Source: an uncultured Ectothiorhodospiraceae bacterium (GTDB lineage Bacteria > Pseudomonadota > Gammaproteobacteria > UBA9214). From it: DNA of 64,000 bases. Of this stretch, positions 4,548 through 25,931 are shown piece after piece. Within the stretch, counting starts at the first letter, position 1. Every line of letters begins with the position of its first letter. Position numbers and translations under genes: made by a program. The notes beneath the pieces were generated by a model. It searched no databases, had not been told where the DNA came from, and saw only the letters and a program-made list of their open reading frames with translations. The DNA lies in assembly GCA_964564245.1 (NCBI GenBank), contig CAZMAK010000001.1:48989-112988 (forward strand), written 5' to 3'.

Positions 4548-6898
4548 CAGATTTCCCCGCTGCTGTTGCCGGTGCCGAGATAGCGGTCCAGCAGTGATTT
4601 CAGTTCTGTTGTGTCAAGCGGCTTGATGACGCAGTCGTTGGCGCCGGATTCCCTGCACATGCGCAGATCCCTTTCGTCTCCCACGGCGGTCAGTGCGATG
4701 ATCGGCAGATTCTGCAGCTGCGGCTGCCCGCGGATACGCCGGATGGTTTCGTAGCCATCCATGCCGGGCATCATTATATCCATAAACACCAGGCTGAATT
4801 CACCGTCGGTGGACAGTGTTTCCAGCGCCTCCGGGCCATCGCCGGCGGCCATGACCTGCAGGTTCCAGCCCTCCAGCAACGGCGTCAGGGCCAGCAGGTT
4901 ACGCACATCATCGTCGACCAGCAATACCCGTGCCGCGCCGTAATCGGCCGCGGGAATCGCCTGTTCCGCCGGCTTGCCGGGACGGACCGCCGGGAGCGGC
5001 CCGGCCGGCATGTCATTCGTATCGGCGGGCATCTCGGCAGGCAGGTACAGGGTGAAACTCGATCCGGTACCGGGTGTGCTCTCTGCGCGGATGTCACCGC
5101 CGAGCAACCAGGCCAGTTCACGGCTGATCGTCAGCCCCAGCCCGGTGCCGCCAAAGCGCCGGCTGGTCGAGCCGTCCGCCTGCTTGAAGGCCTCGAACAC
5201 CAGGTCGAGCTTGTCCGGGGCGATGCCGATCCCGGTATCCGTGACCCGGATACACACCGGGTAACTGATGCCACCCGCCGATTCCTCGCCCAGCAGCTCG
5301 AAACGGATGCCGCCATGGCTGGTGAACTTGACCGCATTCGACAGAAAATTGATGAGGATCTGGCGGATTTTCTCGCCATCGCTGATGACCGTCTCCGGGG
5401 CCGCGGGATCCACCGTGAGTTGCAGGGTCAGCCGCTTTTCATCCAGTTGCGGCCGCATCAGGTCCTGCACATGATCCAGCAAGCTGCGCAACTGCACCGG
5501 CTCCCTGACCAGGGTCATCTGCCGGGCCTCCACGCGGGACAGGTCCAGGATATTGTCGATGAGCGCCTTCAGGTCGGTACCGGCGTCATGGATGACCCGC
5601 GCCTGGCGGACCTTGTCCTCCGGCAGATTTCCTTCCGCGAGCATCTTGGAAAGCAGCAGGATGGAATTCAGCGGGGTGCGTAACTCGTGACTGACGTTGG
5701 CCAGGAATTCCGACTTGTAGCGATTCGATTCCTCGAGCTCGGCGGCGTAGTCATGCAGGGCACGGGTGTTGGCTGCGTGGGTTGCGGCCAGCCGCGTCAG
5801 GTTCTGTCCCAGTTCCTGCAATTCCCGCGGCTGGGACCAGGCGAACACCACGCCCTCGTCCCGCTCCAGCACCCGGGCGATCCGGTCGGTCAGTTCCTGT
5901 CCCAGACGCTCGATCCTGACCGCGATCAGCCGGGCCACCACGAACACCACCACCAGCAGGCCGACCACGATCAGCACGACACGCAGTTCCACCGCACGCT
6001 GCAGGGTGGCCAGTGGCGACGCGTCCACGCTGCGCCCGACCCAGAGCGTGCCGTAGTCCTGCGTATAGAACAGGGGCACCCATAACACCTGCTGGTTGCC
6101 GTATTCCCACAGGCCCAGTTCCCCCTTGCTGAACAGCTGCTGCAGACCCTGGAAGTCATCGAATGCGGAACTGCGCCGGGTCTCACCGTTCGCCGAGGGC
6201 AGGTACTGGCCGTCTCCGAGCACCCAGTAATTGCCCCGGTAGGCACTGGCCAGCCCGCCCAGGTCGAGATACACGATGACCGTGCCGCGCGGCTCGGGCA
6301 TCTCGCCCGATTCCGTGGGCATGGCCGGTATCATGACCGGGCTGATCAGGCTCATCTGCATGAACCGGTTTGGCGCGGTCACGCTGGCACCGCGGTCAAA
6401 CATGATCGGCCCGTTCATGACGGCGCCCGGACGCAGGGTCTTGCTGGCCTCGAGCAGTTCCGGGTTGATGGCCGCGTGCTTTTTCTTCCGGACCTCCATG
6501 CGCCCCGTGCTCTTGTTGCGATCCAGCCAGAACTCCGGGCTCCCGTCGGTCCTGAGAAACAGGATCTGCGTTACGTCCAGCTGGTCACTCAACACCTGGT
6601 TCACCCAGTTCACGTACGCTTTCCGGGAAGCATCGAGTTCCTGCTGATTCTGTTTCGACGTGGTGGTGCGCAACAACCCGGGCTCAGGCATCTTGGCAAG
6701 CAGTCTTGCCGTCTCGTGACGCCGCGCAAGGTGCTGGTCCAGGTCGCTGAACTCGGCGCGCAGGTTCTGCAGGTGTGCCTTGTGATACAGCAATTCGATC
6801 TTGTCAAAGATCATCGGTACATTGATCACGAATGAAACCAGCAGCGGTACCATGCTGAACAGGATCAGGTACAGGGAAATCCGGGTACGCAGCTTCAT
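4547..6898 (-). CDS. hybrid sensor histidine kinase (periplasmic sensor, TM, HisKA, HATPase, C-terminal receiver)
   Basis: H-box SHELRTPLNS. HATPase G-boxes DTGIGI and GGTGLGL. C-terminal VLLVDDD...MDIMMPGMDG receiver. Confidence 0.85.
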   Translation of the reverse strand: MKLRTRISLYLILFSMVPLLVSFVINVPMIFDKIELLYHKAHLQNLRAEFSDLDQHLARRHETARLLAKMPEPGLLRTTTSKQNQQELDASRKAYVNWVNQVLSDQLDVTQILFLRTDGSPEFWLDRNKSTGRMEVRKKKHAAINPELLEASKTLRPGAVMNGPIMFDRGASVTAPNRFMQMSLISPVMIPAMPTESGEMPEPRGTVIVYLDLGGLASAYRGNYWVLGDGQYLPSANGETRRSSAFDDFQGLQQLFSKGELGLWEYGNQQVLWVPLFYTQDYGTLWVGRSVDASPLATLQRAVELRVVLIVVGLLVVVFVVARLIAVRIERLGQELTDRIARVLERDEGVVFAWSQPRELQELGQNLTRLAATHAANTRALHDYAAELEESNRYKSEFLANVSHELRTPLNSILLLSKMLAEGNLPEDKVRQARVIHDAGTDLKALIDNILDLSRVEARQMTLVREPVQLRSLLDHVQDLMRPQLDEKRLTLQLTVDPAAPETVISDGEKIRQILINFLSNAVKFTSHGGIRFELLGEESAGGISYPVCIRVTDTGIGIAPDKLDLVFEAFKQADGSTSRRFGGTGLGLTISRELAWLLGGDIRAESTPGTGSSFTLYLPAEMPADTNDMPAGPLPAVRPGKPAEQAIPAADYGAARVLLVDDDVRNLLALTPLLEGWNLQVMAAGDGPEALETLSTDGEFSLVFMDIMMPGMDGYETIRRIRGQPQLQNLPIIALTAVGDERDLRMCRESGANDCVIKPLDTTELKSLLDRYLGTGNSSGEI

Positions 6899-7900: not shown

Positions 7901-9307
7901 CTAGTACAGTACCCCGCTGTCCGCATCTTTCCCCGGGGCCGCCGTCCTGCTCCGTGTATCGCCCAGCAGACTCTTCAGCGAGTCCTCGATGTAACCGTGA
8001 TTGTTCAGCTCATGGTCGATTTCCCGGGGCCGCTTCTCGAGCTGCTCGGCCGCCGCGGCGACCTTCGGTGCATTTCCGCCGTCCAGCGGGACCTTGTCAT
8101 TATCGATCAGGTAGGGTGTCACCAGCACGATCAGCTCCGAGTTGTCGCTCTTGTGCAGGTCGTTCGAAAACAGCCTGCCGAGCACCGGAATATCGCCAAG
8201 CACCGGCACGCCTTCGCGGTTGCTGTTGTCATTGCGGGTGATCAGGCCGCCGATGAACACCGTCTGCCCGCTTTCAACCAGCATGGAAGTGGTAACCTCC
8301 GCCGTCGTCTGGTTGAGGACGTCCCCGCCGCTGACCTCGGGGTGTATGTTCAGGAAAATCCGCCCCTCCCCGTCCACGGACGGCTTGACCTTCATGATGA
8401 CACCCACTTCCTGGAACTGGACCGAGGTGGTGGTGACGTTGTCGATGGTGGTGGTGACGTTATAACCGAGTCGTTTGCCGATGATGGTTTCCGCCTCCTG
8501 GTCTTCCAGTGCCAGCAGCTTCGGCGTGGACAGGGTGCGGGTGCGGCCGCGCGTACGCAGGCTGTCCAGGAAGGCCTGTACGTTGGGGGTGACATAGTTG
8601 AAGTACAGACCGGGTGAACCCGCGTTCCCCAGACCCTGGGTACCGATCGTGGCGTCACCGGAGCGAAACACCCGGGTCCAGTCCAGGCCCCAGGATTCCT
8701 GGTCGGTCAGCGATACCTCCAGTATCTTCGCCTCGATCAGGATCTGGCGCGGCTGGCGGTCCACTGCGCGGAGCATCCGTTCCACGCGGCCGAGGAAGTA
8801 CGGTGTGTCCTCGACGATCAGCAACCGCCGCTCCGGCAGCGTCGTGATCTGTCCGTAACTCGACAGGTGTGACTTGAGGATCCCGGCCACCACCTCGGGG
8901 TCGGAATACTGCACCTTGTAGGTGCGCACCTCGGTCGGTCCGCCCGGATCGGACTTGCCGGCCTGGTCGCGTTCCACGATGAAGTAACTGCCATTGCGGC
9001 GTTCCACACCGTACCCGGCCGAGGAGGCGATCGAACGGATGGCGGCATCGACCTCCACGCCGTACAGGTTGACGGAAACCTTGCCCTTGACGTTTTCGGA
9101 AAGCAGGATGTTCACGCGCGCGGTACGCGACAGCATCTCCATGACCTCCGCGATGCCCACATTGCGCAGGGTCAGCGTGATCTTGCCGTCATGGTAGATA
9201 TCCTCCGGCGCAGCGCCGTGTGCCGGCAGGGCCAGCAACAGCCACACCACCGGCAGCAACAGCGCCGGCGCGAGCCGGGATCTACCATGTTCCGCTTGTC
9301 TTTGCAT
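7901..9307 (-). CDS. type IV pilus/MSHA-type secretin (GspD/PilQ/MshL family)
   Basis: Signal peptide. Secretin C-domain motifs VPVLGDIPVLGRLF and LIVLVTPYL. Start chosen at MQRQAEHG, with GGAGAGG just upstream. The track ORF extends to 9385. Confidence 0.85.
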   Translation of the reverse strand: MQRQAEHGRSRLAPALLLPVVWLLLALPAHGAAPEDIYHDGKITLTLRNVGIAEVMEMLSRTARVNILLSENVKGKVSVNLYGVEVDAAIRSIASSAGYGVERRNGSYFIVERDQAGKSDPGGPTEVRTYKVQYSDPEVVAGILKSHLSSYGQITTLPERRLLIVEDTPYFLGRVERMLRAVDRQPRQILIEAKILEVSLTDQESWGLDWTRVFRSGDATIGTQGLGNAGSPGLYFNYVTPNVQAFLDSLRTRGRTRTLSTPKLLALEDQEAETIIGKRLGYNVTTTIDNVTTTSVQFQEVGVIMKVKPSVDGEGRIFLNIHPEVSGGDVLNQTTAEVTTSMLVESGQTVFIGGLITRNDNSNREGVPVLGDIPVLGRLFSNDLHKSDNSELIVLVTPYLIDNDKVPLDGGNAPKVAAAAEQLEKRPREIDHELNNHGYIEDSLKSLLGDTRSRTAAPGKDADSGVLY

Positions 9308-9701: not shown

Positions 9702-10257
9702 CCTGCGCCTCCCGGTAGGAAACGATCGTGAAGGTGGCGACCACCCGCCGTGCCGTGTCGGCCGGCGGCCCCGCGGCAAGTTTGAACTGCTGGACCACCA
9801 CGTAGCCCAGTTCTTCACGCAAGTCCTGCAACCACTGGTACAGATCGAAGTAATCACCCGAAACCCGCACGTTGAACGTCACTTCCTCGAACACCTGCAC
9901 CTTGTCGCCCAGGCCGGGCGTCACGCTCAGCAGCTCGACATGATTGCGCCAGGAAATCTCCTGTAGCCGGCCGATGACGAAGGACTCCATCTGGTTCTTC
10001 GGCAGGTCGACCATATCCCCGTGCAACTGCCGGTTCAGCGTATCGACGCGGTCCTGCAAGCGGCTCATCTCGCCCTGCAGGGAATCGCCCTTGGCGGCCA
10101 CGCCTTCCAGCAGCCTGAGCGTGGCCAGCGATTCGCGGTAGGCCCTGGCCTGCGGCCACACGACGTAGCTCACCAGCGCGATAACCAGCGTCAGTGCCAG
10201 CGCGGACATCAGCAGCACGACGGTACGGGGCGGGACCCTTTGCAGGATGGCTTCCAT
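9694..10257 (-). CDS. PilO/MshJ-like inner-membrane pilus assembly protein
   Basis: Single N-terminal TM, coiled-coil, C-terminal beta domain. Gene order M-N-O-P-secretin. Confidence 0.55.
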   Translation of the reverse strand: MEAILQRVPPRTVVLLMSALALTLVIALVSYVVWPQARAYRESLATLRLLEGVAAKGDSLQGEMSRLQDRVDTLNRQLHGDMVDLPKNQMESFVIGRLQEISWRNHVELLSVTPGLGDKVQVFEEVTFNVRVSGDYFDLYQWLQDLREELGYVVVQQFKLAAGPPADTARRVVATFTIVSYREAQDD

Positions 10258-10907
10258 CAGTCTTTCGTCTCGTGCGTATTGACGGTCACGGCGAGATTGA
10301 AATCCACAAACTGGGTCCTGTCGACCAGCGTGGTATTGATGATCCGCACATCCTGGATCTCCGGCTGCCGGTACATGCGCCTGACGAATTCCGACAGCGC
10401 GGAGTAGTCTTTCGCCTGGCCATGGATCTGCATCCGCGTCTCGATCTTCCAGGCCTCGTTGCTCTGCTTGCCATCGGTGGCCGGAATGACGATGAAATAG
10501 CCGTTGCTGGCCGTCTCCGGCCTGTGCTCGACCACGCTCCCGGCCCGGTTGAAATCCCAGGACAGGAACCAGACATCGCCTTCCACCATGGCCCGGTCGA
10601 CCGCCTCGAACATGGCGGAGGCCACCGCGCCTCCGCGCAGCCCGCGCAGCAGCACCAGCCGGCTTTCCAGTTCGGCGCGTTTCCGGTCCAGCTGCGTGAA
10701 CCGCTCGCGCTGTTGCGCCGACACCGCCTGGCGCGCCTGCAGGCCGGCGATCAACCGTCCGGTCCTGATCGCCTGGTAATGCAGCACGCCCAGTGCCAGC
10801 AGCAGGACGACCACCGCCAGTGCGACCGCCACGCCAATATTGAGCGCCTTGCCCTGCAGCCAGATACGACTGCGATAGTCGGCGGGTATCAGGTCGATTT
10901 CAGCCAT
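10257..10907 (-). CDS. PilN-like inner-membrane pilus assembly protein
   Basis: N-terminal IDLIP motif (like the INLLP of PilN), then a TM and a coiled-coil. 8-nt overlap with the PilM-like gene. Confidence 0.6.
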   Translation of the reverse strand: MAEIDLIPADYRSRIWLQGKALNIGVAVALAVVVLLLALGVLHYQAIRTGRLIAGLQARQAVSAQQRERFTQLDRKRAELESRLVLLRGLRGGAVASAMFEAVDRAMVEGDVWFLSWDFNRAGSVVEHRPETASNGYFIVIPATDGKQSNEAWKIETRMQIHGQAKDYSALSEFVRRMYRQPEIQDVRIINTTLVDRTQFVDFNLAVTVNTHETKD

Positions 10908-14488: not shown

Positions 14489-15419
14489 GGGTCGGACCTG
14501 TTTATCAGACTGATCCTCAAGCAATAAGTGTTCATATTTGGCTAAGGTATGGACCCTAAGCGTCGTTTCCAGGCTAAAAACGCAGTTTCAAGGAGGACAT
14601 GGATGCCTCGTGCACATCGCTATTTCCTGCCAGGCCATATCTGGCACATCACGCATCGCTGCCACAAGCGGCAGTTCCTGCTCAAGTTTGCGAAGGACCG
14701 CAGGGCCTGGGTGTACTGGCTCTATCAGGCACGCAAACGCTTTAACCTGTGCGTACTGAACTATGTTGTGACATCAAACCATATCCATTTGCTGGTTAAG
14801 GACACGGGGCGCGGAGAGATCTCGCGCAGTATGCAGTTGATTGCCGGGCGTGTGGCGCAACAGTTCAACCGACGCAAGGCACGCAAAGGCGCCTACTGGG
14901 AGGATCGCTATCATGCAACCGCCGTGCAGTCGGACGGACATCTGGCAAGGTGCATGGTCTACATCGACCTGAACATGGTCCGGGCCGGGGTGGTGGCACA
15001 TCCAGCGGACTGGGTGCATGCGGGTTACAACGAAATCCAGTCGTTGCCGAAGCGCTACCGCTGCGTCGATGTGGCAGCACTTTCCGCATTACTGGATTTT
15101 ACCGATGCGGATAGCTTGCGCGACGGACTGCGCACGCGAGTGGAACTGGCGCTTGCGAAGGGTAATCTGGAGCGCGACCCAGCGTGGACCATGAGTATCG
15201 CCGTGGGACAGCGCGACTACCTGGACGCGATCGGGCTCGAACTGAAGCTCAGTCATCCGGGGCGGAGGATTGAGGGAGACGCAGATCTATTATGCTTGCG
15301 GGAGGAACCGAGCAGTTATTCGAGCTAAAAAGTGCCAGAAAAGTATGGTCCAAGCTGAGAAATCAGTCGCTCAACCGCATTATGTGATTACTTATCAGGA
15401 TATTGGGAAGGTCCGACCC
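14489..15419 (+). mobile_element. REPtron-like unit: RAYT gene bracketed by inverted REP-like repeats
   Basis: Perfect 11-bp inverted repeat GGGTCGGACCT (14489-14499) / AGGTCCGACCC (15409-15419) flanks the transposase gene. The same core CAGGTCCGAC recurs in the 21-bp repeats at 23726-23747, 23875-23895 and 36807-36827. Confidence 0.5.
14603..15328 (+). CDS. REP-associated tyrosine transposase (RAYT; IS200/IS605-like Y1 HUH transposase)
   Basis: HUH motif NHIHLLV and catalytic-Tyr region GAYWEDRYH. AAGGAGG RBS 6 nt before ATG 14603. The track ORF starts further upstream at 14549. Confidence 0.8.
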   Translation: MPRAHRYFLPGHIWHITHRCHKRQFLLKFAKDRRAWVYWLYQARKRFNLCVLNYVVTSNHIHLLVKDTGRGEISRSMQLIAGRVAQQFNRRKARKGAYWEDRYHATAVQSDGHLARCMVYIDLNMVRAGVVAHPADWVHAGYNEIQSLPKRYRCVDVAALSALLDFTDADSLRDGLRTRVELALAKGNLERDPAWTMSIAVGQRDYLDAIGLELKLSHPGRRIEGDADLLCLREEPSSYSS

Positions 15420-15476: not shown

Positions 15477-18400
15477 TCACGGCGTGCACTGGATCTGGAT
15501 GTTGTCGAACCAGACTTCATCAGCCCACCCCAGCGTGGAAGAGCTGAGCAGCCGGATGGCGGTCGTACCCGAAATATAGGCACTGATATCCTGGCTGAAC
15601 GACCGGTAGCCGTAATCCGTACCCCAGCCCTGGAAGCGGGTGAGTTCGGTCCACGGCCCCGCCGACCCGTTGCTGGACACCTGCAGGGCCACATAATCGC
15701 TGCTGGTATCCAGCTGGTTGCGGCGATACTGCAATGACAACGTAGCCGTGGTCGCACCCGCCAGGTTGGCCTCGCGCAGCACACCCTCACCACCCCCGTC
15801 GTTATCCCGCACGCGCAGCTGGTTGGTCCCCGGCGTGGCGCTGGCGGTCGAATCGGCCCCGACCCATTCATCACCCGACTGCGCACCGTCTGCCTCGTTG
15901 ACCTCCTGCCAGTCGCCGGTCCAGCTAAGTGTGCCGTCATTGCCGGAATAGTTGTGTGCATTGAAGTCGTCGCGGTAGGTGCCACTGCACCCTCCGCCAC
16001 CGCCGCCACCGCCACCGCCGCCACCGCCACCGGTCGGTGGCACCTGGTCGGCATCCACCAGCACGATACCGCGCGGACGGCTCAGGCCGGAGGAGACGAT
16101 GGTCTCCACGTTGCCGCCGTCGGGATCGGAGCGCTGCACCCGCTGGTTGAGCGCATCGACCCAGTAGATCCGGTCGTGGTCCGCATCGTAGGCGATGTCC
16201 TGTGGCGCGTTCAGCCCGGTCACGATGGTTTCCATGTTGCTGCCGTCGAGGTTGGCGCGCCTGATCCAGTCGTTGCTGGCCCCGCCGGTCCAGTACATCT
16301 TGCCGTTTACCAGGTCCAGCGCACTGCCGACGGCGCCGGTCGGCCCGGTCGTGAGCGTGGTCACGGAGCTGCCATTGACTTTCATGCTCGATACCCGGCC
16401 ACTGCCGAACTCGGTCAGGTACATCTTGCCTGCGGACTTGTCCAGGCTGAGATAGGACGGCCGGTTCAGGGTATTGTTGACGAGCGTGGCGCCGCTGCCA
16501 TCGAGGTTGGCGCTCATGACCCGGCTGGAACCGTTGTCGTGGGTCCAGTACATCTTTCCGCCGGCCACATCCAGCTTGATGTCGAAGGTCACGTAGGCAT
16601 CATTATAGACGACCTCGCTGTTGCTGCCGTCCAGGTTCGCGCGCCGGATCTGGTAATTGTTGGTCCAGTAGAGCTTGCCGTTGACGGTGTCGATATCCAG
16701 CCCGGTCGGGCGGTCCAGCCCGGTCAGTACATCCTCCACATCGCTGCCGTCCTCGTCCGAGCGCTGGATCTTGTTGGCGACATCATCGGTCCAGTACACC
16801 TTCTTCGGCGGGACGGCCGGCACTCCGTCCATGCCCCACTGGATGGCACGCTGCACCAGCAGGCGGCCGTTGTTGTTGAGGTAGTCCCAGTTGAACTTGC
16901 CGGCCCGCCCGACCGGGACCGAGATGATACGAGCAACTGCATTACCACCGCCGAACATCTGTGCACCGGCTTCGATGGCCGAGAGTCCGGTGGCCCCGTT
17001 CAGACGGCCTAACGCCTGCAGGCCCGGCGCCGGGTTGGCGGTGACGGTCGCACCCTCCATAGCGAGGTTCCCGAGCGGGATCACGCCGAGCGGGAACAGC
17101 GCGGTGATGAACTGGGTGTTATCGGCGATCCCGATACTGTCGGTGACGGTGTAGCTGCCAGGATCGGCCACCCCGAGATTATCGTACTGCTCGGCCGGTT
17201 CGGTGATGACGGCGATGGGCGCCCTTTTCAGCCGGTTGCCAAGCGTGGCATCCGCCACGGTGTTGGAAACGTACACGGCATCGTTAGCCCCCATGGCAGC
17301 ATTCATGGTGGACTGGTCGACTCCATCGTCGATCAGTGTCACCACGTAGCCCCAGGACTCGAACAGGGTTTTGCGGGTGATATCCGCGGCGGCGGGAGCG
17401 GCCGCGTTCCCGACCACCAGCAGCAGGCGACCGCTGCCCTGTGGCAACTGGCAGACCACCCCGCATTCGCAGGCAAAGGTCAGCGTGAGTTGCGGGTGCT
17501 GCGCCGCAGCGGGGCTGTCGCTGCTGGTGAAGTCGATATCGCCGGCATTGCCACCGCCCTCGCGTAACAGGAAACCAAAGTTGGGGGCACCATCCAGCCA
17601 GTCCTGGACCTGTGCAGTGACATCCCACTCGTACCAGCCAGGCGCCATGGTGGGCAGGGTTACGCTGTCAATGACCGCGGCATCATAGTCACCGCCGGGG
17701 TTATTCCAGGCGGTCAACCCATCGTAGCTCTGGTAGGTCACACCCGCACCGGGCGGTGGCACCTGGTTGTCAAAGCTGCCTTCCACCCAGGCATGGGTAA
17801 CCCGGTGCAGATCAAGCCGGCCGTTGGACACACCGGAGCCGCCTTCCAGGTACAGACCCAGGTGGGCATCGGTGATGCGCGCGCCGGGCGGCAATACCTC
17901 CAGCGCAAAGCGCAGCAGCACATTGCGGTCATTCTTGATGTTCAGAATGGAGGAAGCACCGAAATTCGTGTTCTTGTGGGCACCGGCCCAGACAAAGGCA
18001 TCCTGCAGCTCGGCACCCGGCTGCAGGGTCGCCGAACTGACCGGCTGATAGAGCGGAATATCGTTACGAACGATGGTGTAGCTGGCACCACTGTCCAGCG
18101 TACCGGTTGCGGTCACCGCGGCGCGGTTGGACAAATTGCCATCCGTATACCTGACCTCCAGGTATGGCCGGTGACTGGCATCGCTGTCTTCCTTGCTGGC
18201 GAACTCCGTGGTATCCGTGCCGAGCAGCGTGGAAGACACGATAAGTACGCCGTAGTTCGGCTGCGCGCCACTGACCCAGCCCTGCACCAGCGCGGTCAGG
18301 TTGACATCGGCATACTGATCCTGCGGCGTGCCGGCCGGGATGCTGGCGACCGTCGAGGCATCGAAACTGGTACCGATGCTGTTCCAGGTCACCGTGGCCT

Positions 18401-18983
18401 CGTCCCAGGACGCGGTCACGCGGTGCACTGTCACCGGCAAGGTGTGTTTGAACCGGGTGACATACCAGTGCGCCACGGCGGACACGATCGTGGCACTGGC
18501 CGGGATGCCGGCATTCTCGATGTCGAAGCGGTAGTAGGGCCGGTCGTAGTTGCCGCCGAGCAGGTTGCTTTCCAGGCGCAGCGTGCCGTCGCTGCCGTGG
18601 TTGGCGTTGCCGTTGTTCTTGTCGATCCAGGCATCGTCGCTGACCGGCACACTGACGTTCGAGATCGTACTGCCCACCTTGTTGACAGTGATGGTGGTCG
18701 AATAGTGATGGGCGCCGAACGGCACGCTGGACAGACCGGTATAGGGACCGCAACCGGCTGTATCGATCTGCTGCAGGGTATGTTGCAGGCCGGCCCTGGC
18801 GACGTACTCCGCCTGCGTGTGCCCGGCCACGGTGCCGGTGGCATTGAGTTCGACTGCAGAGCCATGATTGATCATGAAGGCGACCACGGCAACCAGTGCG
18901 ATCAGCAGCACCACCGGCAGCAGCACGAAACCACGCCGGTCGTTTGCACAGGCCACACGCCGTGTCGATCTGACTCGACTCAC
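15477..18983 (-). CDS. giant minor-pilin/adhesin fusion: GspK/PilX-like N-terminus, two carbohydrate-binding-like domains, YWTD beta-propeller, Gly14 linker, C-terminal lectin-like domain
   Basis: N-terminal RRGFVLLPVVLLIALVAVVAF is a pseudopilin-type helix lacking Glu5, as in GspK. Two copies of a beta-sandwich module ending W(D/V)E(A/G)T/S..W.N. Six YWTD/YWT(N/H) repeats (YWTDDVANKIQRSD, LYWTNNYQIRRANLDGSN, MYWTHDNGSSRVMSANLDGS and others), as in LDL-receptor class B propellers. Gly14 tract. Stop overlaps the upstream pseudopilin start. Confidence 0.7.
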   Translation of the reverse strand: MSRVRSTRRVACANDRRGFVLLPVVLLIALVAVVAFMINHGSAVELNATGTVAGHTQAEYVARAGLQHTLQQIDTAGCGPYTGLSSVPFGAHHYSTTITVNKVGSTISNVSVPVSDDAWIDKNNGNANHGSDGTLRLESNLLGGNYDRPYYRFDIENAGIPASATIVSAVAHWYVTRFKHTLPVTVHRVTASWDEATVTWNSIGTSFDASTVASIPAGTPQDQYADVNLTALVQGWVSGAQPNYGVLIVSSTLLGTDTTEFASKEDSDASHRPYLEVRYTDGNLSNRAAVTATGTLDSGASYTIVRNDIPLYQPVSSATLQPGAELQDAFVWAGAHKNTNFGASSILNIKNDRNVLLRFALEVLPPGARITDAHLGLYLEGGSGVSNGRLDLHRVTHAWVEGSFDNQVPPPGAGVTYQSYDGLTAWNNPGGDYDAAVIDSVTLPTMAPGWYEWDVTAQVQDWLDGAPNFGFLLREGGGNAGDIDFTSSDSPAAAQHPQLTLTFACECGVVCQLPQGSGRLLLVVGNAAAPAAADITRKTLFESWGYVVTLIDDGVDQSTMNAAMGANDAVYVSNTVADATLGNRLKRAPIAVITEPAEQYDNLGVADPGSYTVTDSIGIADNTQFITALFPLGVIPLGNLAMEGATVTANPAPGLQALGRLNGATGLSAIEAGAQMFGGGNAVARIISVPVGRAGKFNWDYLNNNGRLLVQRAIQWGMDGVPAVPPKKVYWTDDVANKIQRSDEDGSDVEDVLTGLDRPTGLDIDTVNGKLYWTNNYQIRRANLDGSNSEVVYNDAYVTFDIKLDVAGGKMYWTHDNGSSRVMSANLDGSGATLVNNTLNRPSYLSLDKSAGKMYLTEFGSGRVSSMKVNGSSVTTLTTGPTGAVGSALDLVNGKMYWTGGASNDWIRRANLDGSNMETIVTGLNAPQDIAYDADHDRIYWVDALNQRVQRSDPDGGNVETIVSSGLSRPRGIVLVDADQVPPTGGGGGGGGGGGGGGCSGTYRDDFNAHNYSGNDGTLSWTGDWQEVNEADGAQSGDEWVGADSTASATPGTNQLRVRDNDGGGEGVLREANLAGATTATLSLQYRRNQLDTSSDYVALQVSSNGSAGPWTELTRFQGWGTDYGYRSFSQDISAYISGTTAIRLLSSSTLGWADEVWFDNIQIQCTP
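15991..16034 (-). repeat. (GGN)14-15 trinucleotide tract encoding a poly-Gly linker
   Basis: Forward strand reads ccTCCGCCACCGCCGCCACCGCCACCGCCGCCACCGCCACC. Protein has TGGGGGGGGGGGGGGC. Confidence 0.8.
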
Positions 18984-19939
18984 AGCGCACCCCCGACCTG
19001 TACCCGGGTATCCAGGCTGACGCTCCGGCCACTGACGGGATCGGTCAGCACCAGCGAGATGGTAACGAGCACCGCGCCGGCGGCGGTCGCCGGCAGACGC
19101 TCGACACGAAACCCGCTGACCTGATCGGCAATGGCGGATTCGATGAAATCGCGCCCGTCCACGACGCCGCTGCCATCCACATCCCAGGGCACCGGCTGAC
19201 GGCGGATCAGCTGTGTACCCTTCAGGTAAAACACCACCGGGTCGAGCCAGTCCTCGTTGCTGGCGCCGTCCTCGTCATCGTCGCTGCTGCTGCCCTCGTC
19301 GACCGTCCCGTCCGCGTCATCGTCGACACCGCAGATGCCCGGACAGCCGTCACCGTTGAGATCAGCACCGGGGTCCTCGTCGGTGTTGCTGTCGTTGTCG
19401 TCGTCGATCCCGTTGACCGGATCGAGGTTGGCGGTCGCCGACTCGTCGTCCGAGTCCGCGGCCCCGTTATCGACCCTGCCGTCCCCGTTATCGTCGATCA
19501 GGTAGATCCCGGGCGCCGCGTCGTTGGTCCAGTCGGCCGGCGGGTCCTCGTCGAAACGGCCGTCGCCGTCATTGTCCGCATCGGGCGTGCCGTTGCCGTC
19601 CAGGTCGGTAACATGATCGAGCGTCACCGCGACCACATTGTTGATGTTCTCCGGGTAGGCGGTCGCGGTATCGTCGTTGAGCGGGACCAGCAGGTGCGGA
19701 CTGCGACCGACCGCCTGCACGATCTGGTCCATGGCAAAGCGCGCATCGCGGTTGAGCGCACCGGTCTCCGAAACCGAGTCGAGGGTATCGAGCACCTGGC
19801 CGGTGACGCCGTTCAGGGCGGCAAGCAGTAGCGCGGACAGGGCCAGCGCCAGCAGCAGTTCGACGAGGGTAAAACCGCGCTGGCAGGCAGACCCCGCCCG
19901 GCTGGAAGCGGCGGGCGAGGGCAATATCGGGCTAGTCAT
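18980..19939 (-). CDS. GspJ/PilW-like minor pilin with an Asp-rich thrombospondin-type-3-like calcium-binding repeat insertion
   Basis: Prepilin motif QRG|FTLVELLLALALSALLLA after a 21-aa leader. Central region has 9 or more DxDxDG/DxDGDG-type repeats (DLDGNGTPDADNDGDGRFDED, DDNGDGRVDNG, DDDADGTVDEG). ATG at 19939 overlaps the upstream gene stop by 8 nt. Confidence 0.65.
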   Translation of the reverse strand: MTSPILPSPAASSRAGSACQRGFTLVELLLALALSALLLAALNGVTGQVLDTLDSVSETGALNRDARFAMDQIVQAVGRSPHLLVPLNDDTATAYPENINNVVAVTLDHVTDLDGNGTPDADNDGDGRFDEDPPADWTNDAAPGIYLIDDNGDGRVDNGAADSDDESATANLDPVNGIDDDNDSNTDEDPGADLNGDGCPGICGVDDDADGTVDEGSSSDDDEDGASNEDWLDPVVFYLKGTQLIRRQPVPWDVDGSGVVDGRDFIESAIADQVSGFRVERLPATAAGAVLVTISLVLTDPVSGRSVSLDTRVQVGGAL

Positions 19940-20423
19940 GGGCACTGCGCAGGGTCTCCAGTGCCGTGTCGCCGATCTCCACCCGCAGCCAGAGCAGGTC
20001 CGCCTCGGTGCCGGTAAACGGGTCAGCATCGCCATCCGCGTTGTCGCTGTCGTAACGCGACAGGTAAACATTGCGGGTCACCGTCCTGCCGTCCTGGAAC
20101 GTGACCGTGTCACTGTAACTGCCCGGCGTGACCCGGCTGCCGGCCGCCGTCGCGGCCGCATCCAGCGCGGCAAACGGCTCTGCCAGCAATTCCTCCATCC
20201 GCCCGGCCACCGCAAAGTGATCCTCGACCCGGTTGGCGTGCGCCCCGGCAGCGGCTTCCCCGGGTGACAGGGCCTCCAGTGCCGGCGCCAGCGCCAGCAT
20301 GATCAGCACGATCGCAATCAGCACCTCGACATAACTGATGCCGGCCATGCGGGCGCAACCGGTTTTACGCACCCTGGCCGGGCGTCTCCCGCACGCCGGC
20401 CGCCACGTCGTTACCCGGTTCAT
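19932..20423 (-). CDS. GspI/PilV-like minor pilin
   Basis: Prepilin-like G|ISYVEVLIAIVLIMLALAP with Glu at +5. The ATG forms an ATGA overlap with the stop of the upstream H-like pilin gene. The track ORF extends further upstream. Confidence 0.5.
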   Translation of the reverse strand: MNRVTTWRPACGRRPARVRKTGCARMAGISYVEVLIAIVLIMLALAPALEALSPGEAAAGAHANRVEDHFAVAGRMEELLAEPFAALDAAATAAGSRVTPGSYSDTVTFQDGRTVTRNVYLSRYDSDNADGDADPFTGTEADLLWLRVEIGDTALETLRSAHD

Positions 20424-21574: not shown

Positions 21575-21882
21575 GGTTAACTCCTGTTCGCCCATATAGT
21601 ATGGTTTGGACAAACGGGGTATCGGCAAGTACCCGGGCGGCTTTAAAATATCAGGTTAATTAAGAGCTTCCAGCCACCCACCGCCATGACCGATGCTCTC
21701 CCGGCGAGCAACCGGATTTAACCATATAAACAGTGGGTTATCTATCTTCCGGACCTGGCTGACGGTGGCAAATCGCTTCAGGCTCGCCAGCTTGCAGAGC
21801 TGTGTGCGGGTAACTACTATAGCCCTGCATACGAGAAAACATATTCTTGCGCATACACAATAATGATTACGGAGGCTCTGTC

Positions 21883-22608
21883 ATGCAATTATTACGCACT
21901 GGCTGCGTGGTTCTCGCCTGTCTCGCAGGAGTTTCTCTAGAGGCCAACGCCCTCACCATTGACTTCGGCACGGTTAAGGATGCCAACGTGCAAAGCGACA
22001 GTTCCGGTCCGCTCGGGGGTGGCAGCGCAATCCTCGATCCCTTTACAAACAGTAGCTACAGCATCGATTCCTACATCGGATTTGATATCGCTGACTTTCA
22101 GTCGCTCGGAAACCCGGCTGTCGACGTTTCCCTCGATCTGTATGGCTTTGCTGCAAGAACCTCGCTGGTCCTGAATATCTATGGACTGAACGATCTGGTA
22201 TCTCCCGGCTGGTCAGAAAGCACCATCGACTGGACCAATGCACCCGGAATACAGTCAGATTCGATTGATCCTGCCACAACGACCCTGTTGTTTTCGGGGT
22301 CGGTCAGCTATACAGCGAATAACGTCATCAGCTTCAGTGACAGTTCTTTTGCTGATTTCATTAACAGCGACACAGATGGCCTGGTCACCTTCATTCTCAC
22401 GCAGCCAACCGCTACCAGCGAAAACCACGCATTCAGCAGCAAGGAATCCTCTGGCAATCCCGCTATCGGTCTCCCGGGTGACTATGCGCCCACACTGCAC
22501 ATTACAGCAGCGCCCGTCCCCGCCGCTGTCTGGCTGTTCGGTTCCGGCCTGCTGGGGCTGATCGTTGTGGCGCGGCGCCGGCACCGCGCCTCAGTGCACC
22601 GCCTGTGA
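21883..22608 (+). CDS. PEP-CTERM-anchored secreted protein with a carbohydrate-binding-like beta-sandwich domain
   Basis: Signal peptide MQLLRTGCVVLACLAGVSLEA. Domain ending WSESTIDWTNAPG is the same module as in the giant pilin-adhesin. C-terminus PVPAAVWLFGSGLLGLIVVARRRHR matches the PEP-CTERM sorting-signal architecture (VPxx, TM, RRR). GGAGG RBS before ATG 21883. Confidence 0.6.
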   Translation: MQLLRTGCVVLACLAGVSLEANALTIDFGTVKDANVQSDSSGPLGGGSAILDPFTNSSYSIDSYIGFDIADFQSLGNPAVDVSLDLYGFAARTSLVLNIYGLNDLVSPGWSESTIDWTNAPGIQSDSIDPATTTLLFSGSVSYTANNVISFSDSSFADFINSDTDGLVTFILTQPTATSENHAFSSKESSGNPAIGLPGDYAPTLHITAAPVPAAVWLFGSGLLGLIVVARRRHRASVHRL

Positions 22609-23725: not shown

Positions 23726-23895
23726 CCTGGGAGCCTGTCGGGCCTGGGCGATCGTAGCGAGCCGTGTGGGAGAACGAGGCCATTTTTCCGATCGTTCGAG
23801 GAGAATAGCCGTCGCTATTTGACGAGGAGGAGCGGAACAATGGACCGCTGTCCCACCGGCGCAGTAGATCAGTCCCAGGTCCGACAGGCTCCTAG
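23726..23895. mobile_element. MITE/REPIN-like element (about 170 bp) with 21-bp terminal inverted repeats
   Basis: CCTGGGAGCCTGTCGGGCCTGG (23726-23747) and its near-perfect inverted copy CCAGGTCCGACAGGCTCCTAG (23875-23895) bound the ATPase-platform intergenic region. 19 of 21 positions match. The left repeat contributes part of the platform gene RBS. The right repeat contains the ATPase stop codon. Confidence 0.55.
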
Positions 23896-25931
23896 ACATT
23901 GATGACACGGGAAACCTCCTCGATCGTGGTTTCACCCGCCCGCACGTGATCCAGGCCATCGACAAACAGATTGCGGAAATCCCGCTCATGTAGATGCCGG
24001 TGCAGCTCGTCGCGCCCCGGACTGGTGGTGATCAGGCGTTGCAACGATTCATCACATTGCAGCACCTCGTGTATACCCATGCGCCCGCGATAGCCGGAAT
24101 CGTAGCATTCGTTACAGCCACGCCCGCGCGCCAGCTGCACCTGCCCGTCCCAGCCGAACCGGCTGATCAGGCCCGGTTCGGCCACATAGCGCGTCTTGCA
24201 GGCCGGGCAGATGACGCGGACCAGCCGTTGCGCAACCACGCCGATCAGTGCGGAGGACAGCAGATACGGTTCCACGTCCATATCGATCATGCGCGTGATT
24301 GCGCCGATCGCATGATTGGTGTGCAGGGTCGACAGCACCAGATGGCCGGTCAGGGCCGCCTGCACGGCGATTTCCGCCGTCTCGCGGTCACGGATCTCAC
24401 CCACCATCACGATATCCGGATCCTGGCGCAGCGTGTGGCGCAGGATGGTGGAGAAGGTCAGGCCGATGTGCTCATGCACCTCGTTCTGGTTGACCACCTC
24501 GATCTGGTATTCGACCGGATCCTCGATGGTCACGATGTTCTTTTCCATGCTGTTGAGGTAGTTCAGCGCGGCATACAGCGAGGTGGTCTTGCCGCTGCCG
24601 GTCGGTCCGGTGACCAGGATCAGTCCGTGGCTGCTGTCGAGCAGGGACTTGAACAGGGTCAGGTTGCCCGCGCTCATGCCGAGCTTGTTGACGTCCAGCA
24701 GCGAACGGTTCTTGTCCAGCACGCGCAATACCACCTTCTCCCCGAACAGGCCCGGCAGTGAACTGAAGCGCAGGTCCACCGCGCGACCCTGGGTACGTAC
24801 CTGGATACGGCCGTCCTGCGGCATGCGACGCTCGGCGATATCCAGGTTGGCCATCACCTTGAGACGGGAGACAATGGCCGGGTGGTATTCGGCACTGAGC
24901 GTGGTGACCTCGTACAACACCCCGTCGATACGGAAGCGTACGCGGGTCCGGTTTCGTGACGGCTCGATGTGAATGTCGCTGGCGCCGTCACGGATCGCGC
25001 GCTGGACCAGCGAATTGACCAGGTTGACGATCGGACTGCCTTCCGCCATCTCGTCGATCGCGGCGTAGTCGTCGCGGGCAATATTCTCGACCACGGTAAA
25101 GTCGGCATCGACATCGCCGATCAGTTCAATGGTGTCCACGTTACCTGCGTAGGCATCGTTGAGGGCGTTCAGGATGTCCTCGCGCCGTGCAATCACCGGC
25201 TGCACGCGGCAACCGGAAAGCTTCTCGACCTCGGCGAACGCGGGCATGGCCTGCGGGTCCGAGGTGGCCAGGAACAGCACATCATGTATCTTCTGCAGCG
25301 GCAGCATCTGCAGGCGTTTCGCAACCCGCATGTCGATGATTCCCGTCACGGCAGGATCGTAGATACCGGCACGCAGGCGCACGCAGGGAATCGACAGCTG
25401 TTCACCCAGCGCGGTCAGCACGTCCTGATCGGACACCCACCCCTTGTCGATGATGATCTGCCCCATGCGCCGCGACGTCCGCTTCTGCAGCTCGATCGCC
25501 TCGGCAATACGTTCCTCCGTGATCAGACCCCGTTCCAGCAGGATATCTCCCAGGCGTTGTGTCCCGCCGCTGCGCGTAGTGCGTTGCACGGGGTCCACGT
25601 CCACCATGGGGACATAACTGGAAAACGAGGTAAGCGTCAGGATATCCAGCACGATCGTGTTGGCTCGCGCCAGCTTCAGCCAGCCGCCCTGCCGTACCGC
25701 CTGTTCCTGGATGTCTACCAGCGCCTCCAGCGCCGCACTGTTGAGCAGCTTGACCGATCCCAGGTCCACTACGAGCTGTGCATCGCCCGGTCGCATGCTT
25801 TCGTTCGCGGCGGCCGTCAGCGCCCGGATATCCTCATCACTGAGCAACGAGGTACGTGGCACCAGCTGGGTCATCACGCCCACGCGGGTACGCAACACCT
25901 CGCTCGTCAGATATTCGGGTGAAACACTCAT
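23892..25931 (-). CDS. pilus extension ATPase of the GspE/MshE family with N-terminal STAS-like domain and MshEN-type c-di-GMP-binding motifs
   Basis: Walker A GPTGSGKT, Asp box, His box, CPACK Zn motif. MshEN motif RLGDILLERGLITEERIAEAIELQKRT at about residue 118. The preceding 110 aa (LVVDLGSVKLLNSAALEALVDIQEQAVRQGGWLKLARANTIVLDILTLTSF) align with SpoIIAA-type STAS domains. 679 aa, versus about 575 aa for canonical MshE. Confidence 0.9.
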   Translation of the reverse strand: MSVSPEYLTSEVLRTRVGVMTQLVPRTSLLSDEDIRALTAAANESMRPGDAQLVVDLGSVKLLNSAALEALVDIQEQAVRQGGWLKLARANTIVLDILTLTSFSSYVPMVDVDPVQRTTRSGGTQRLGDILLERGLITEERIAEAIELQKRTSRRMGQIIIDKGWVSDQDVLTALGEQLSIPCVRLRAGIYDPAVTGIIDMRVAKRLQMLPLQKIHDVLFLATSDPQAMPAFAEVEKLSGCRVQPVIARREDILNALNDAYAGNVDTIELIGDVDADFTVVENIARDDYAAIDEMAEGSPIVNLVNSLVQRAIRDGASDIHIEPSRNRTRVRFRIDGVLYEVTTLSAEYHPAIVSRLKVMANLDIAERRMPQDGRIQVRTQGRAVDLRFSSLPGLFGEKVVLRVLDKNRSLLDVNKLGMSAGNLTLFKSLLDSSHGLILVTGPTGSGKTTSLYAALNYLNSMEKNIVTIEDPVEYQIEVVNQNEVHEHIGLTFSTILRHTLRQDPDIVMVGEIRDRETAEIAVQAALTGHLVLSTLHTNHAIGAITRMIDMDVEPYLLSSALIGVVAQRLVRVICPACKTRYVAEPGLISRFGWDGQVQLARGRGCNECYDSGYRGRMGIHEVLQCDESLQRLITTSPGRDELHRHLHERDFRNLFVDGLDHVRAGETTIEEVSRVINV

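Follow-up and report, generated by a model that had tools for sequence, protein, structure and literature searches.

A J-class minor pilin carrying a conserved acidic insertion of putative calcium-binding loops in a type IV filament operon

In a 64,000-nucleotide stretch of DNA from an uncultured Ectothiorhodospiraceae bacterium (the window), one gene combines an ordinary prepilin N-terminus with a long aspartate-rich tract, raising the question of what such a tract is and what it does on a minor pilin. The gene lies at 18980..19939 on the - strand (as do all features located below), where the original prediction had placed it, and is a real ORF. Its 319-aa product, a minor pilin of the J class (GspJ/PilW position) that bears an acidic insertion, begins with MTSPILPSPAASSRAGSACQRG, followed across the leader/helix junction by FTLVELLLALAL. 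The normal prepilin N-terminus that had also been proposed was borne out by matches above curated cut-offs to Pfam N_methyl (PF07963; residues 19-42, 31.1 bits versus a cut-off of 21.2) and TIGR02532 (27.9 bits versus 16.3). The class III signal peptide (residues 1-22, ending in QRG) and the hydrophobic alpha1 segment, with F23 and E27, are encoded by 19805..19939. The junction reads QRG followed by FTLVELL, with glutamate at +5, and in a 30-sequence alignment of homologues G22 is invariant and E27 nearly so (at least 90%). The ATG overlaps the stop codon (19932) of an I-like gene on its 5′ side, and the stop codon overlaps the GTG (18983) of a K-like gene on its 3′ side, a pattern typical of operon coupling. 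An alternative ATG at 20071 was rejected as the start codon, since it would create a 140-nt overlap with the I-like gene, whereas a start at 19939 yields both an ordinary leader and the customary overlap of start and stop codons.

The AF2 model of the protein (pLDDT 77.5, pTM 0.71) comprises a long N-terminal helix and two sheets. [quoted passage not shown] According to the same structural alignment, the globular domain has a GspJ-type fold. The suggested GspJ/PilW-like identity is thus supported by fold and gene order, but the GspJ/PilW sequence models do not recognise the protein. No Pfam model (T2SSJ and PilW included) besides N_methyl matched at E ≤ 1, TIGR01711 (gspJ) scored 14.8 bits against a cut-off of 64.85 over the N-terminal helix only, and the family profile matched pilin N-termini among PDB sequences, with no GspJ chain. 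The known GspJ/XcpW/EpsJ and PilW proteins (PDB 3nje, 2ret_B, 3ci0_J; Thermus TTHA1219, 5g23) therefore share no sequence-model match with it, and a Foldseek search of the full model against the PDB returned nothing at E ≤ 0.001, with EpsJ at E of about 0.05. Taken together, prepilin signal, fold, and operon position identify the protein as a GspJ/PilW-position (J-class) minor pilin. It is about 130 residues longer than the GspJ/PilW class because of the acidic insertion, which in the AF2 model interrupts the scaffold between the second and third beta-strands.

The H-I-J-K minor pilins prime and cap type IV filaments, and to our knowledge the J-class subunit has so far been viewed as a plain structural adaptor. 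In the window, the gene order runs GGDEF-EAL, MshE-type ATPase, platform protein, major pilin, H-, I-, J- (the protein studied here), and K-like pilins, PilM/N/O/P-like proteins, and secretin. Synteny of the form E-F-G-H-I-J-K-(GGDEF/HDOD)-PilMNOP-secretin was found at about 35 loci from several phyla, and the order major pilin, H, I, J, K recurs at about 30. Type II secretion operons contain GspC/L/M; instead of these, this one has PilMNOP and an MshE-type ATPase alongside its GspH-K-like pilins. It is a conserved, c-di-GMP-linked type IV filament operon of an uncharacterised type, and it encodes neither a PilY1 homologue nor a retraction ATPase. The GspH-like pilin in the window was recognised by TIGR01708 (E 2e-11). 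The translationally coupled I-like minor pilin (19932..20291; AG followed by ISYVEVLIA) has no Pfam/NCBIfam family match, and its position is conserved at about 30 loci. The K-like gene (15477..18983), also translationally coupled, encodes a giant minor pilin of 1168 aa with a GspK-like N-terminus lacking Glu5, two CBM96/DNRLRE domains, and a YWTD beta-propeller (NF033679 DNRLRE, 4.2e-58; PF24517 CBM96, 1.6e-36; Ldl_recept_b, 5e-17); NF037980 (GspK) matched its N-terminus only (E 0.0016). In relatives, a CBM96-bearing gene likewise follows the J-class homologue. A PEP-CTERM DNRLRE protein is also encoded within the operon.

The insertion itself spans residues 107-233 (19241..19621), as delimited by composition, AF2, and conservation, and holds about eight 12-residue loops of the Dx[DN]xDG type. 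Its 127 residues are 30% Asp, with a net charge of about -42; residues 101-235 contain 38 Asp, 6 Glu, 12 Asn, 2 Arg, and no Lys. The roughly 120 residues of DxDxDG / DxDGDG repeats originally reported are therefore present. Seven overlapping Dx[DN]x[DN]G matches start at residues 112, 120, 122, 149, 193, 206, and 220, whereas composition-preserving shuffles gave 0.71 +/- 0.83 and none of 20,000 reached seven, so the array is patterned and goes beyond an Asp-rich composition. The repeats are spaced 14-30 residues apart, and the DNA segments encoding the loops are just 68-75% identical to each other. This divergence rules out recent slippage as the source of the tract and suggests that the loop duplications are old and maintained. 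No helix or strand was predicted for residues 107-233, which were modelled at pLDDT 55-89 in the whole-protein, ion-free AF2 model (70-89 over much of the insert and 55-60 at residues 160-200). Folded alone, the insert gave an unreliable model (pLDDT 50, pTM 0.20); these low values and those at residues 160-200 suggest that it may be partly disordered.

Column conservation computed over 205 aligned sequences gave the loop consensus D-x-D-x-D-G-x-[IV]-D-E-D. In most loops, D occupies positions 1, 3, 5, and 9 at frequencies of 0.86-1.00, with lower values for loops 1 and 3b and for certain third positions; G is found at position 6 and I/V at position 8, and variation is seen at positions 2, 4, and 7. 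At position 9, D reaches 0.93-1.00 in loops 2, 3, 4, and 6 and 0.89 in loop 1, D/N occurs in loops 3b and 7, and Gly in loop 5; E and then D usually come next. Loops 1 and 2 (19541..19606) overlap, extending from D112 to N123 (DLDGNGTPDADN) and from D122 to P133 (DNDGDGRFDEDP), and the region of loop 2 is conserved at D122 (0.97), D124 (0.99), D126 (0.99), G127 (0.91), D130 (0.93), E131 (0.99), and D132 (1.00). In loop 3 (D149-A160, DDNGDGRVDNGA; 19460..19495), D149, D150, and D157 are all at 1.00 and G154 at 0.96, with a hydrophobic residue at V156. Loops 3b and 4 are degenerate in the protein studied here. Loop 3b (S163-P174, SDDESATANLDP; 19418..19453) carries S163, S167, and A168 where the family consensus is DDDEDGxxNEDP (D163 0.80, D164 0.95, D165 0.91, E166 0.99, G168 0.53, D173 0.94), and loop 4 (D179-P190, DDDNDSNTDEDP; 19370..19405) has the family consensus DDDGDGx[IV]DEDP (D179 0.98, D181 0.98, D183 0.97, D187 0.97, E188 0.94, D189 0.99). 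Loop 5 (D193-G204, DLNGDGCPGICG; 19328..19363), conserved at D193 (0.95), N195 (0.88), D197 (0.95), and G201 (0.95), contains a CPGxC pair: C199 and C203 (CPGIC) are the sole cysteines of the insert, occur together in 118 of the 205 homologues (58%), and are missing from distant phyla. Loops 6 (D206-S217, DDDADGTVDEGS) and 7 (D220-W231, DDDEDGASNEDW), encoded by 19247..19324, are conserved at D206 (0.95), D210 (0.89), G211 (0.83), and D214 (0.97), and at D222 (1.00), D224 (0.98), G225 (0.93), E229 (0.94), D230 (0.99), and W231 (0.79), respectively. A further 12-residue EF-hand-like loop lies inside the scaffold (D253-D264, DVDGSGVVDGRD; 19148..19183), as indicated by a weak phmmer alignment to the EF loops of calcineurin B; D253, G262, and D264 are conserved among homologues.

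Homologue surveys ruled out a strain-specific expansion of the tract. The original prediction would have fallen had the tract been absent from orthologues or unconserved in its spacing; instead, it is conserved with position-specific spacing across phyla. Every one of the 204 near-full-length homologues carries the insert, at a median length of 129 aa, and the more than 200 full-length carriers come from Gammaproteobacteria, Myxococcota, Planctomycetota, Nitrospirota, and other groups, many of them being marine-sediment or symbiont Gammaproteobacteria. A scaffold-only profile, free of Asp-rich bias, likewise retrieved mostly insert-bearing proteins of 300-378 aa (117 of the best 120). The family comprises hundreds of proteins from several phyla; within its known protein class, it is a variant that is widespread yet undescribed. 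Insert length ranges from 18 to about 170 residues, and relatives with no insert are rare: P0198 (218 aa), P0201 (192 aa), and P0258 (155 aa). Scaffold and insert are separable, the insert-less relatives retaining the pilin scaffold and, in P0201 (WDEDGDGIITEQDF) and P0198, its EF-like loop. Since P0198 is located in an operon of the same type, the insert is accessory and dispensable for the existence of the machine.

To which class of calcium loop the insert might belong can be read from its conserved columns. [quoted passage not shown] 2011, PMC3123361). The conserved columns of the insert (n=205) are these motif positions, and position 9 supplies a downstream acid. The generic loops of EF-hands, dockerins, the integrin/PilY1 "calcium blade", and Tk-subtilisin fit the insert in motif, downstream acid, and hydrophobic position 8. 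No EF-hand, dockerin, or other calcium domain was recognised by Pfam or NCBIfam in the protein or in 17 isolated inserts, N_methyl being the sole match. Among PDB sequences, the insert matched only calmodulin EF-hand loops (E 0.17), loop-level matches of protein or insert to calmodulin and calcineurin B ranging from 0.17 to 1. The insert is nevertheless not an EF-hand, because no helices flank loops in residues 107-233, and it lacks the propeller blade of the integrin/PilY1 type. A known parallel is Tk-subtilisin of Thermococcus, in which an irregular four-Ca insertion is required for folding (PMC3123361); Ca2+ binding by the equally irregular pilin insert is putative. Eight tandem loops inside a pilin are a context not listed in the 2011 survey (PMC3123361). 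By their residue pattern, the loops appear to be of the Dx[DN]xDG calcium-loop type, and Ca2+ binding may be inferred from it.

The insert is probably a Ca2+-stabilised acidic module with a mainly structural role on the J-like pilin of the H-I-J-K complex. For its Ca2+ binding, stoichiometry, tip location, and role, we infer the following. About eight tandem loops, plus a ninth, EF-like loop in the scaffold, would bind Ca2+. Upon export of the prepilin to the Ca2+-containing periplasm, each loop would wrap one, possibly two, ions, and the insert, having no helices or strands of its own, would become ordered only once Ca2+ is bound. In its Ca-loaded state, the insert would be a compact knob of strongly negative charge at the flank of the priming/tip complex, adjoining the K-like subunit and its CBM96 lectin domains of the acidic-polysaccharide type. 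Most likely, such a Ca2+-stabilised acidic knob without secondary structure sits on the priming/tip complex beside this CBM96-bearing subunit. Primarily, it would let the tip complex fold in a Ca2+-dependent way and withstand proteases and mechanical stress; as a secondary consequence, filament priming may fail when Ca2+ is scarce. A structural role is suggested by known filament proteins, because GspG/PulG/OutG and PilY1 need Ca2+ for subunit stability, filament assembly, or the priming complex (PMC13081927, PMC8833165): folding and stability of the major pseudopilin PulG are Ca2+-dependent (PMC13081927), as are priming and tip complexes involving PilY1 (PMC8833165). These proteins have single Ca2+ sites, and none is J-class or bears a tandem array, unlike the putative sites described here. 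In the literature on calcium-binding, Asp-rich, or EF-hand minor pilins, we found only PilY1 and the major pseudopilin.

Modular type IV pilins include Streptococcus sanguinis PilB, with a metal-binding vWA/MIDAS module, the lectin pilin PilC, and GspK with its inserted alpha-domain (PMC8179133). Like them, the protein studied here corresponds to the definition of Raynaud et al. (2021), combining a pilin module with a module also found in unrelated extracellular proteins: giant extracellular proteins from CPR bacteria and GspK-like proteins from Omnitrophota carry the same acidic module, as does an archaeal subtilase (L048), where it lies between the catalytic Asp and His. In PilB and PilC the module is appended, whereas here it is inserted, as in GspK (PMC8179133); it also differs from those of other modular pilins in being a repeat array in a J-class subunit, with no globular domain and no Pfam/NCBIfam model.

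Alternatively, the insert might be an adhesive polyanion that binds mineral cations or forms Ca2+ bridges to acidic, alginate-like exopolysaccharides. It would then help the K-like tip subunit, through the CBM96 domains of the latter, to attach to matrix or surfaces, and would do more than stabilise its own subunit. We regard this as an unlikely primary role, even though several observations agree with it. The 127 residues carry a net charge of about -42, CBM96/DNRLRE domains are a constant feature of the adjacent K-like subunit, and the operon includes the gene for the PEP-CTERM DNRLRE protein. Alginate is bound by the one CBM96 member that has been characterised, and lyases acting on alginate, hyaluronate, and pectate contain the domain (PMC9971899). 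The surrounding c-di-GMP genes are typical of attachment and biofilm control, dispensability in some lineages is expected of an accessory ligand-binding module, and the module recurs in the giant CPR proteins and GspK-like proteins of Omnitrophota. Conservation, however, is that expected of chelating loops, with fixed D, G, and hydrophobic positions, and goes beyond charge alone; little capacity for bridging would remain if each carboxylate already coordinates a Ca2+ ion of its own. The adhesive reading is compatible with the structural one and partly overlaps it, and should Ca2+ binding prove false, the tract would be a conserved polyanionic decoration.

Less probable still is the earlier suggestion that the insert acts as a calcium sensor tuning filament extension and retraction, which we consider quite doubtful. 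Its precedent is PilY1 of type IVa pili, whose Ca2+ binding controls pilus biogenesis and twitching (PMC3123361, PMC8833165); the J-like subunit would share the same priming/tip complex, and the operon has no PilY1 homologue. Yet at least eight serial, strongly conserved putative sites resemble a structural scaffold rather than a switch, there is no retraction ATPase in the operon, and insert-less relatives run the same operon. In the many marine-sediment or symbiont carriers, living at millimolar Ca2+, the sites would presumably be permanently filled.

That the insert is a true homologue, gained by domain shuffling, of the thrombospondin type 3 repeats or the bacterial TSP3 repeats of OmpA type, which it was first said to resemble, is very improbable. 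The thrombospondin type 3 "wire" (PDB 1ux6, 1yo8, 3fby) and the TSP3-like repeats of OmpA (5wtl) consist of tandem Asp-rich DxDxDG loops as well, and type 3 repeats fold around many Ca2+ ions with no helices or strands, an overall design idea that the insert may share. Motif spacing, high Asp content, and the lack of predicted secondary structure speak for homology, as does one 21-column motif-level hhalign match. The motif and HMM searches confirmed a generic Dx[DN]xDG array but found no Pfam TSP_3 match (none at E ≤ 1 on the protein and none at E ≤ 10 on 17 isolated inserts). The insert profile likewise retrieved no thrombospondin, COMP, or OmpA chain from the PDB at E ≤ 10, whereas a TSP3-like control query found TSP-2, COMP, TSP-1, and OmpA 5wtl at E values of 1e-87 to 8e-6. 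When the TSP-2/COMP type 3 repeats rebuilt from this control search were compared with the insert, hhalign gave a probability of 1.1%. Type 3 repeats moreover carry a DxxDxC cysteine ladder forming inter-repeat disulfides (DxDxDGxxDxxDxC and DxDxDGxGDxCD, versus DxDxDGx[IV]DED here), and the insert lacks this defining ladder, having just the two cysteines found in 58% of the family. Homology at the sequence level is thus largely refuted, and the likeness goes no further than the generic Dx[DN]xDG loop and the absence of predicted helices and strands.

The lack of predicted secondary structure, the pLDDT of 50 of the insert folded alone, and its variable length might suggest that the tract serves no specific function, being either a low-complexity expansion or an acidic linker that is intrinsically disordered. 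Such a reading is hardly credible in view of position-specific conservation across phyla, tenfold motif enrichment over composition, diverged DNA repeats with no recent slippage, and pLDDT 70-89 over much of the insert in the full-protein model.

Returning to the Ca2+-stabilised structural module, a bolder extension, which we put forward only tentatively and think unlikely to hold in full, is that it is a mobile and previously undescribed module whose folding depends on Ca2+ and which differs from TSP3, EF-hand, dockerin, and RTX. Such a module would have been inserted independently into J-class pilins, GspK-like giants, CPR surface proteins, and an archaeal subtilase, making H-I-J-K priming and the deployment of a c-di-GMP-controlled, CBM96-tipped filament conditional on external Ca2+, with Ca2+-bridged capture of acidic exopolysaccharide in addition. 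If so, these operons would represent an unrecognised class of type IV filament with a built-in ionic checkpoint. Pfam and NCBIfam gave no match on the module in four non-pilin carriers. If the loops do bind Ca2+, a repeat module missing from both databases would become defined, and calcium control of type IV filaments would reach beyond PilY1 and the major pseudopilin; here the J subunit bears a large, strongly conserved, probably multi-calcium module, paired with a lectin-bearing K subunit and c-di-GMP control. All members of the family are annotated only as [quoted passage not shown]. Oceanimonas marisflavi, a named strain in RefSeq, carries the operon and, if Ca2+ binding holds, would offer a tractable study system, with the natural insert-less variants for comparison.

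An uninterrupted ORF of 319 codons at positions 18980 to 19939 (minus strand) encodes a minor pilin in the GspJ/PilW position (J-like). Its N terminus, which reads MTSPILPSPAASSRAGSACQRG followed directly by FTLVELLLALAL, scores above the curated cutoffs of both the Pfam N_methyl and the TIGR02532 prepilin models, as expected from the original prediction of a pseudopilin. The ATG overlaps the stop codon (19932) of the upstream I-like gene, and the stop codon overlaps the GTG (18983) of the downstream K-like gene; because start and stop codons overlap at both junctions, the three genes are translationally coupled. Residues 101 to 235 are rich in Asp (38), Gly (17), and Asn (12) and include 6 Glu; Arg is limited to 2, and Lys is absent. 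In the insert proper (residues 107 to 233), seven overlapping Dx[DN]x[DN]G motifs were counted, compared to 0.71 ± 0.83 in composition-preserving shuffles, of which 0 of 20,000 reached seven. The pattern is therefore far above what the Asp content would produce, and the earlier description of an Asp-rich motif tract of about 120 residues at these coordinates was correct.

Searching 5.8 billion proteins with this sequence returned 988 matches, the best 120 of which were all 300 to 410 residues long and 52 to 98% identical over approximately 94% of the length. When 50%-identity representatives were searched exhaustively with a profile, 153 clusters matched at an E value of ≤1e-30. Since Asp-rich words could bias such searches for homologs, the search was repeated using a scaffold-only profile from which the insert had been removed, and 117 of the 120 best matches were again 300 to 378 residues long. 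Absence of the tract from orthologs had been named as the outcome that would speak against the original prediction; the tract was present in all 204 near-full-length homologs (median length of 129 residues, 31% Asp), and only a few insert-less relatives were found, so that this check speaks for the prediction. Carriers with varying numbers of units belong to Myxococcota, Planctomycetota, Nitrospirota, Tectomicrobia, and Thermodesulfobacteriota, and further carriers include Sedimenticolaceae, Woeseiaceae, tubeworm endosymbionts, Methylomonas, Ectothiorhodospiraceae, and the named RefSeq strain Oceanimonas marisflavi 102-Na3 (locus L030).

A 30-sequence alignment shows no variation at many of the tract's Asp and Gly positions, and column statistics from 205 sequences resolve the insert into a recurring 12-residue unit. 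Asp occupies positions 1, 3, 5, and 9, with a frequency of 0.86 to 1.00 in most loops; the values for loops 1 and 3b and for some third positions are lower. Gly stands at position 6, Ile or Val at position 8, and mostly Glu-Asp at positions 10 and 11, and there is free variation at positions 2, 4, and 7. According to the same statistics, the eight loops (1, 2, 3, 3b, 4, 5, 6, and 7; minus strand) begin at residues 112, 122, 149, 163, 179, 193, 206, and 220, with loops 3b (163) and 4 (179) being somewhat degenerate in the window protein. The DNA units coding for these loops are merely 68 to 75% identical to each other, which indicates that the duplications are old and maintained and rules out recent slippage as the origin of the tract. 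A CPGxC pair in the insert is shared by 58% of the family and is lineage-restricted. In one subgroup (P0020, P0024, P0028, P0036, P0046, P0052, P0059, and P0066), the linker from loop 3 to loop 3b contains an extra adjacent Cys-Cys pair, e.g., AGCCY or KACCY (columns ~237 to 245 of alignment A1); the window protein does not carry this pair.

The insert-less relatives P0198 (218 residues; positions 8001 to 8657 of locus L068), P0201 (192 residues), and P0258 (155 residues) retain the scaffold and an EF-hand-like loop, and some other relatives carry a shortened tract. P0198 is encoded in the same operon type as the J-like pilin and is followed by a CBM96-bearing K-like gene. Since these three proteins lack the tract, one of them within the same operon type, the insert is an accessory addition that the machine does not strictly require, and they represent natural controls for its function. 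The retained loop corresponds in the window protein to a ninth, EF-hand-like stretch of 12 residues, DVDGSGVVDGRD (pattern D-x-D-G-S-G-x-V-D-G-x-D; residues 253 to 264, positions 19148 to 19183, minus strand), located in a hairpin of the C-terminal scaffold sheet. Because it is conserved in ~75% of the family, insert-less members included, one predicted calcium site may already have existed in the scaffold when the array was gained. An AlphaFold2 model based on the alignment of 30 sequences (mean pLDDT of 77.5, pTM of 0.71) comprises a long N-terminal helix (residues 25 to 78), two short strands (residues 83 to 85 and 102 to 106), the insert with no helix or strand at all (residues 107 to 233, pLDDT of 55 to 89), and a six-stranded C-terminal sheet (pLDDT of 86 to 96).

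Along the minus strand, the operon encodes a GAF-GGDEF-EAL protein, a STAS-MshEN-T2SSE ATPase, and a GspF-type platform protein, then the major pilin, a GspH-like pilin, the I-like pilin (19932 to 20291), the J-like pilin, and a K-like protein, and finally HDOD and GGDEF proteins, PilM, PilN, PilO, a small T2SSC-like protein, and a secretin. This order recurs at approximately 35 loci from different species. The assembly ATPase (23892 to 25931, minus strand) has an unusual N terminus, in which a STAS domain and then a MshEN domain of the c-di-GMP-binding type precede the T2SSE core, and the GAF-GGDEF-EAL, GGDEF, and HDOD genes flank the filament operon. The K-position minor pilin (15477 to 18983, minus strand; 1168 residues) has a GspK-like N terminus without Glu5 and carries two CBM96/DNRLRE domains, a TGFb-propeptide-like stretch, and a YWTD (LDL-receptor class B) beta-propeller. 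In relatives, the J-like gene is also followed by a CBM96-bearing gene, whose C-terminal domains are different ones, for example Laminin_G_3. The part of the K-like gene that lies between the beta-propeller and C-terminal regions contains 14 consecutive glycine codons (GGN; 15990 to 16031, minus strand), which may provide a flexible hinge or be prone to slippage. The K-like and HDOD genes are separated by a gene for an IS200-like Y1 transposase (14549 to 15328, plus strand; PF01797, E value of 2e-10). This gene has the appearance of an operon insertion, since in several relatives (e.g., loci L003 and L010) the HDOD gene comes immediately after the K-like one. The interval between the platform and major pilin genes encodes a secreted protein of 253 residues (21847 to 22608, plus strand) that combines a DNRLRE/CBM96 domain with a PEP-CTERM/VPLPA-CTERM sorting signal; its homologs occupy the same place in loci L005 and L032, which hints that the filament is linked to exosortase-dependent matrix proteins.

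At the level of sequence, the insert matches the generic Dx[DN]xDG calcium loop, its conserved positions being exactly the ligand positions of the class. In such loops, Ca2+ is bound by the Asp side chains, the main-chain oxygen of the next residue, and a downstream acidic residue, and the motif is known in at least sixteen different folds (PMC3123361). The sole PDB sequence matches of the insert were calmodulin EF-hand loops (E value of 0.17), and an EF-hand identity was ruled out because flanking helices are absent from the prediction. The two closest design analogues are the TSP3 "wire" and the irregular four-calcium insertion of Thermococcus subtilisin, which is needed for folding (PMC3123361). 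As an observation, the insert has good support, and that it is a calcium-binding module is plausible.

Overall, we lean toward the insert being a Ca2+-dependent structural module, which would give the J subunit of the H-I-J-K minor pilin complex an anionic knob. The insert would stay unfolded until export and would then order around approximately one Ca2+ per loop, possibly two, yielding a rigid, highly anionic knob within the priming/tip complex, next to the K-like subunit displaying the CBM96 domains. As precedents, PulG, the major pseudopilin, becomes disordered and is degraded when Ca2+ is lacking (PMC13081927), PilY1-containing priming/tip complexes assemble only with Ca2+ (PMC8833165), and folding of Tk-subtilisin depends on its calcium-binding insertion (PMC3123361). 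What the analysis establishes is the prepilin signal, the fold class, the operon position, and the motif array with its conservation; Ca2+ binding, its stoichiometry, the tip location, and the role are inferences. Counting against this reading are the poor in silico folding of the insert modeled alone (pLDDT of 50), the low confidence of residues 160 to 200 in the full-length model, and the natural insert-less relatives.

A more tentative alternative is that the insert is an adhesive, calcium-bridging polyanion cooperating with the CBM96 tip; the characterized CBM96 is an alginate binder (PMC9971899). That it acts as a PilY1-like Ca2+ sensor seems doubtful. True homology to TSP3 is highly improbable, and the TSP3/OmpA-type resemblance originally proposed failed every test at the family level. 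Pfam TSP_3 matched neither the full protein (E value of ≤1) nor 17 isolated inserts (E value of ≤10), and a PDB search with the insert profile (E value of ≤10) retrieved no thrombospondin, COMP, or OmpA chain, whereas a TSP3-like query used as a positive control recovered TSP-2, COMP, TSP-1, and an OmpA protein (E values of 1e-87 to 8e-6). Alignment of the insert to TSP-2/COMP repeats with hhalign gave a probability of 1.1%, and the insert lacks the TSP3-defining cysteine ladder, its sole cysteines being the CPGxC pair; by these comparisons, the insert is not a TSP3 relative. We give equally little credence to a disordered linker without function.

Modular pilins are already known, with 264 architectures listed in one survey and a domain inserted into the sheet of GspK (PMC8179133). 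In the literature on minor pilins and calcium, we found no J-class minor pilin with a tandem calcium-loop array, no curated family model covers the present family, and its members bear generic database names only. Single Ca2+ sites are known in PilY1 and GspG-type pilins. We therefore consider this protein a novel version of a modular pilin. The module, including DxNGDG[CF]PGxxGVDDDxDG and DDDEDGxxDED, also occurs outside the J-like family, and because it is found in unrelated proteins and was matched by no Pfam model in the four such carriers scanned (L045, L048, L050, and L054), the acidic array appears to be a mobile module without a curated model. Giant CPR surface proteins of Peribacteria, Gracilibacteria, and Peregrinibacteria (described as 3700-residue proteins; 1,500 to ~3,900 residues as read) carry it at ~10000 to 10300 in most loci (L050, L052, L060, L063, and L064) and at 6195 to 7085 in L053, L055, and L067, their genes lying 2 to 5 kb downstream of GspE/GspF-like genes. 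It is likewise present in GspK-like giant pseudopilins of Omnitrophota (L054, L057, and L065), in a Dehalococcoidia protein (L045), and in a Thermoplasmatales subtilase, where it lies between the catalytic Asp and His (L048, 8780 to 9034).
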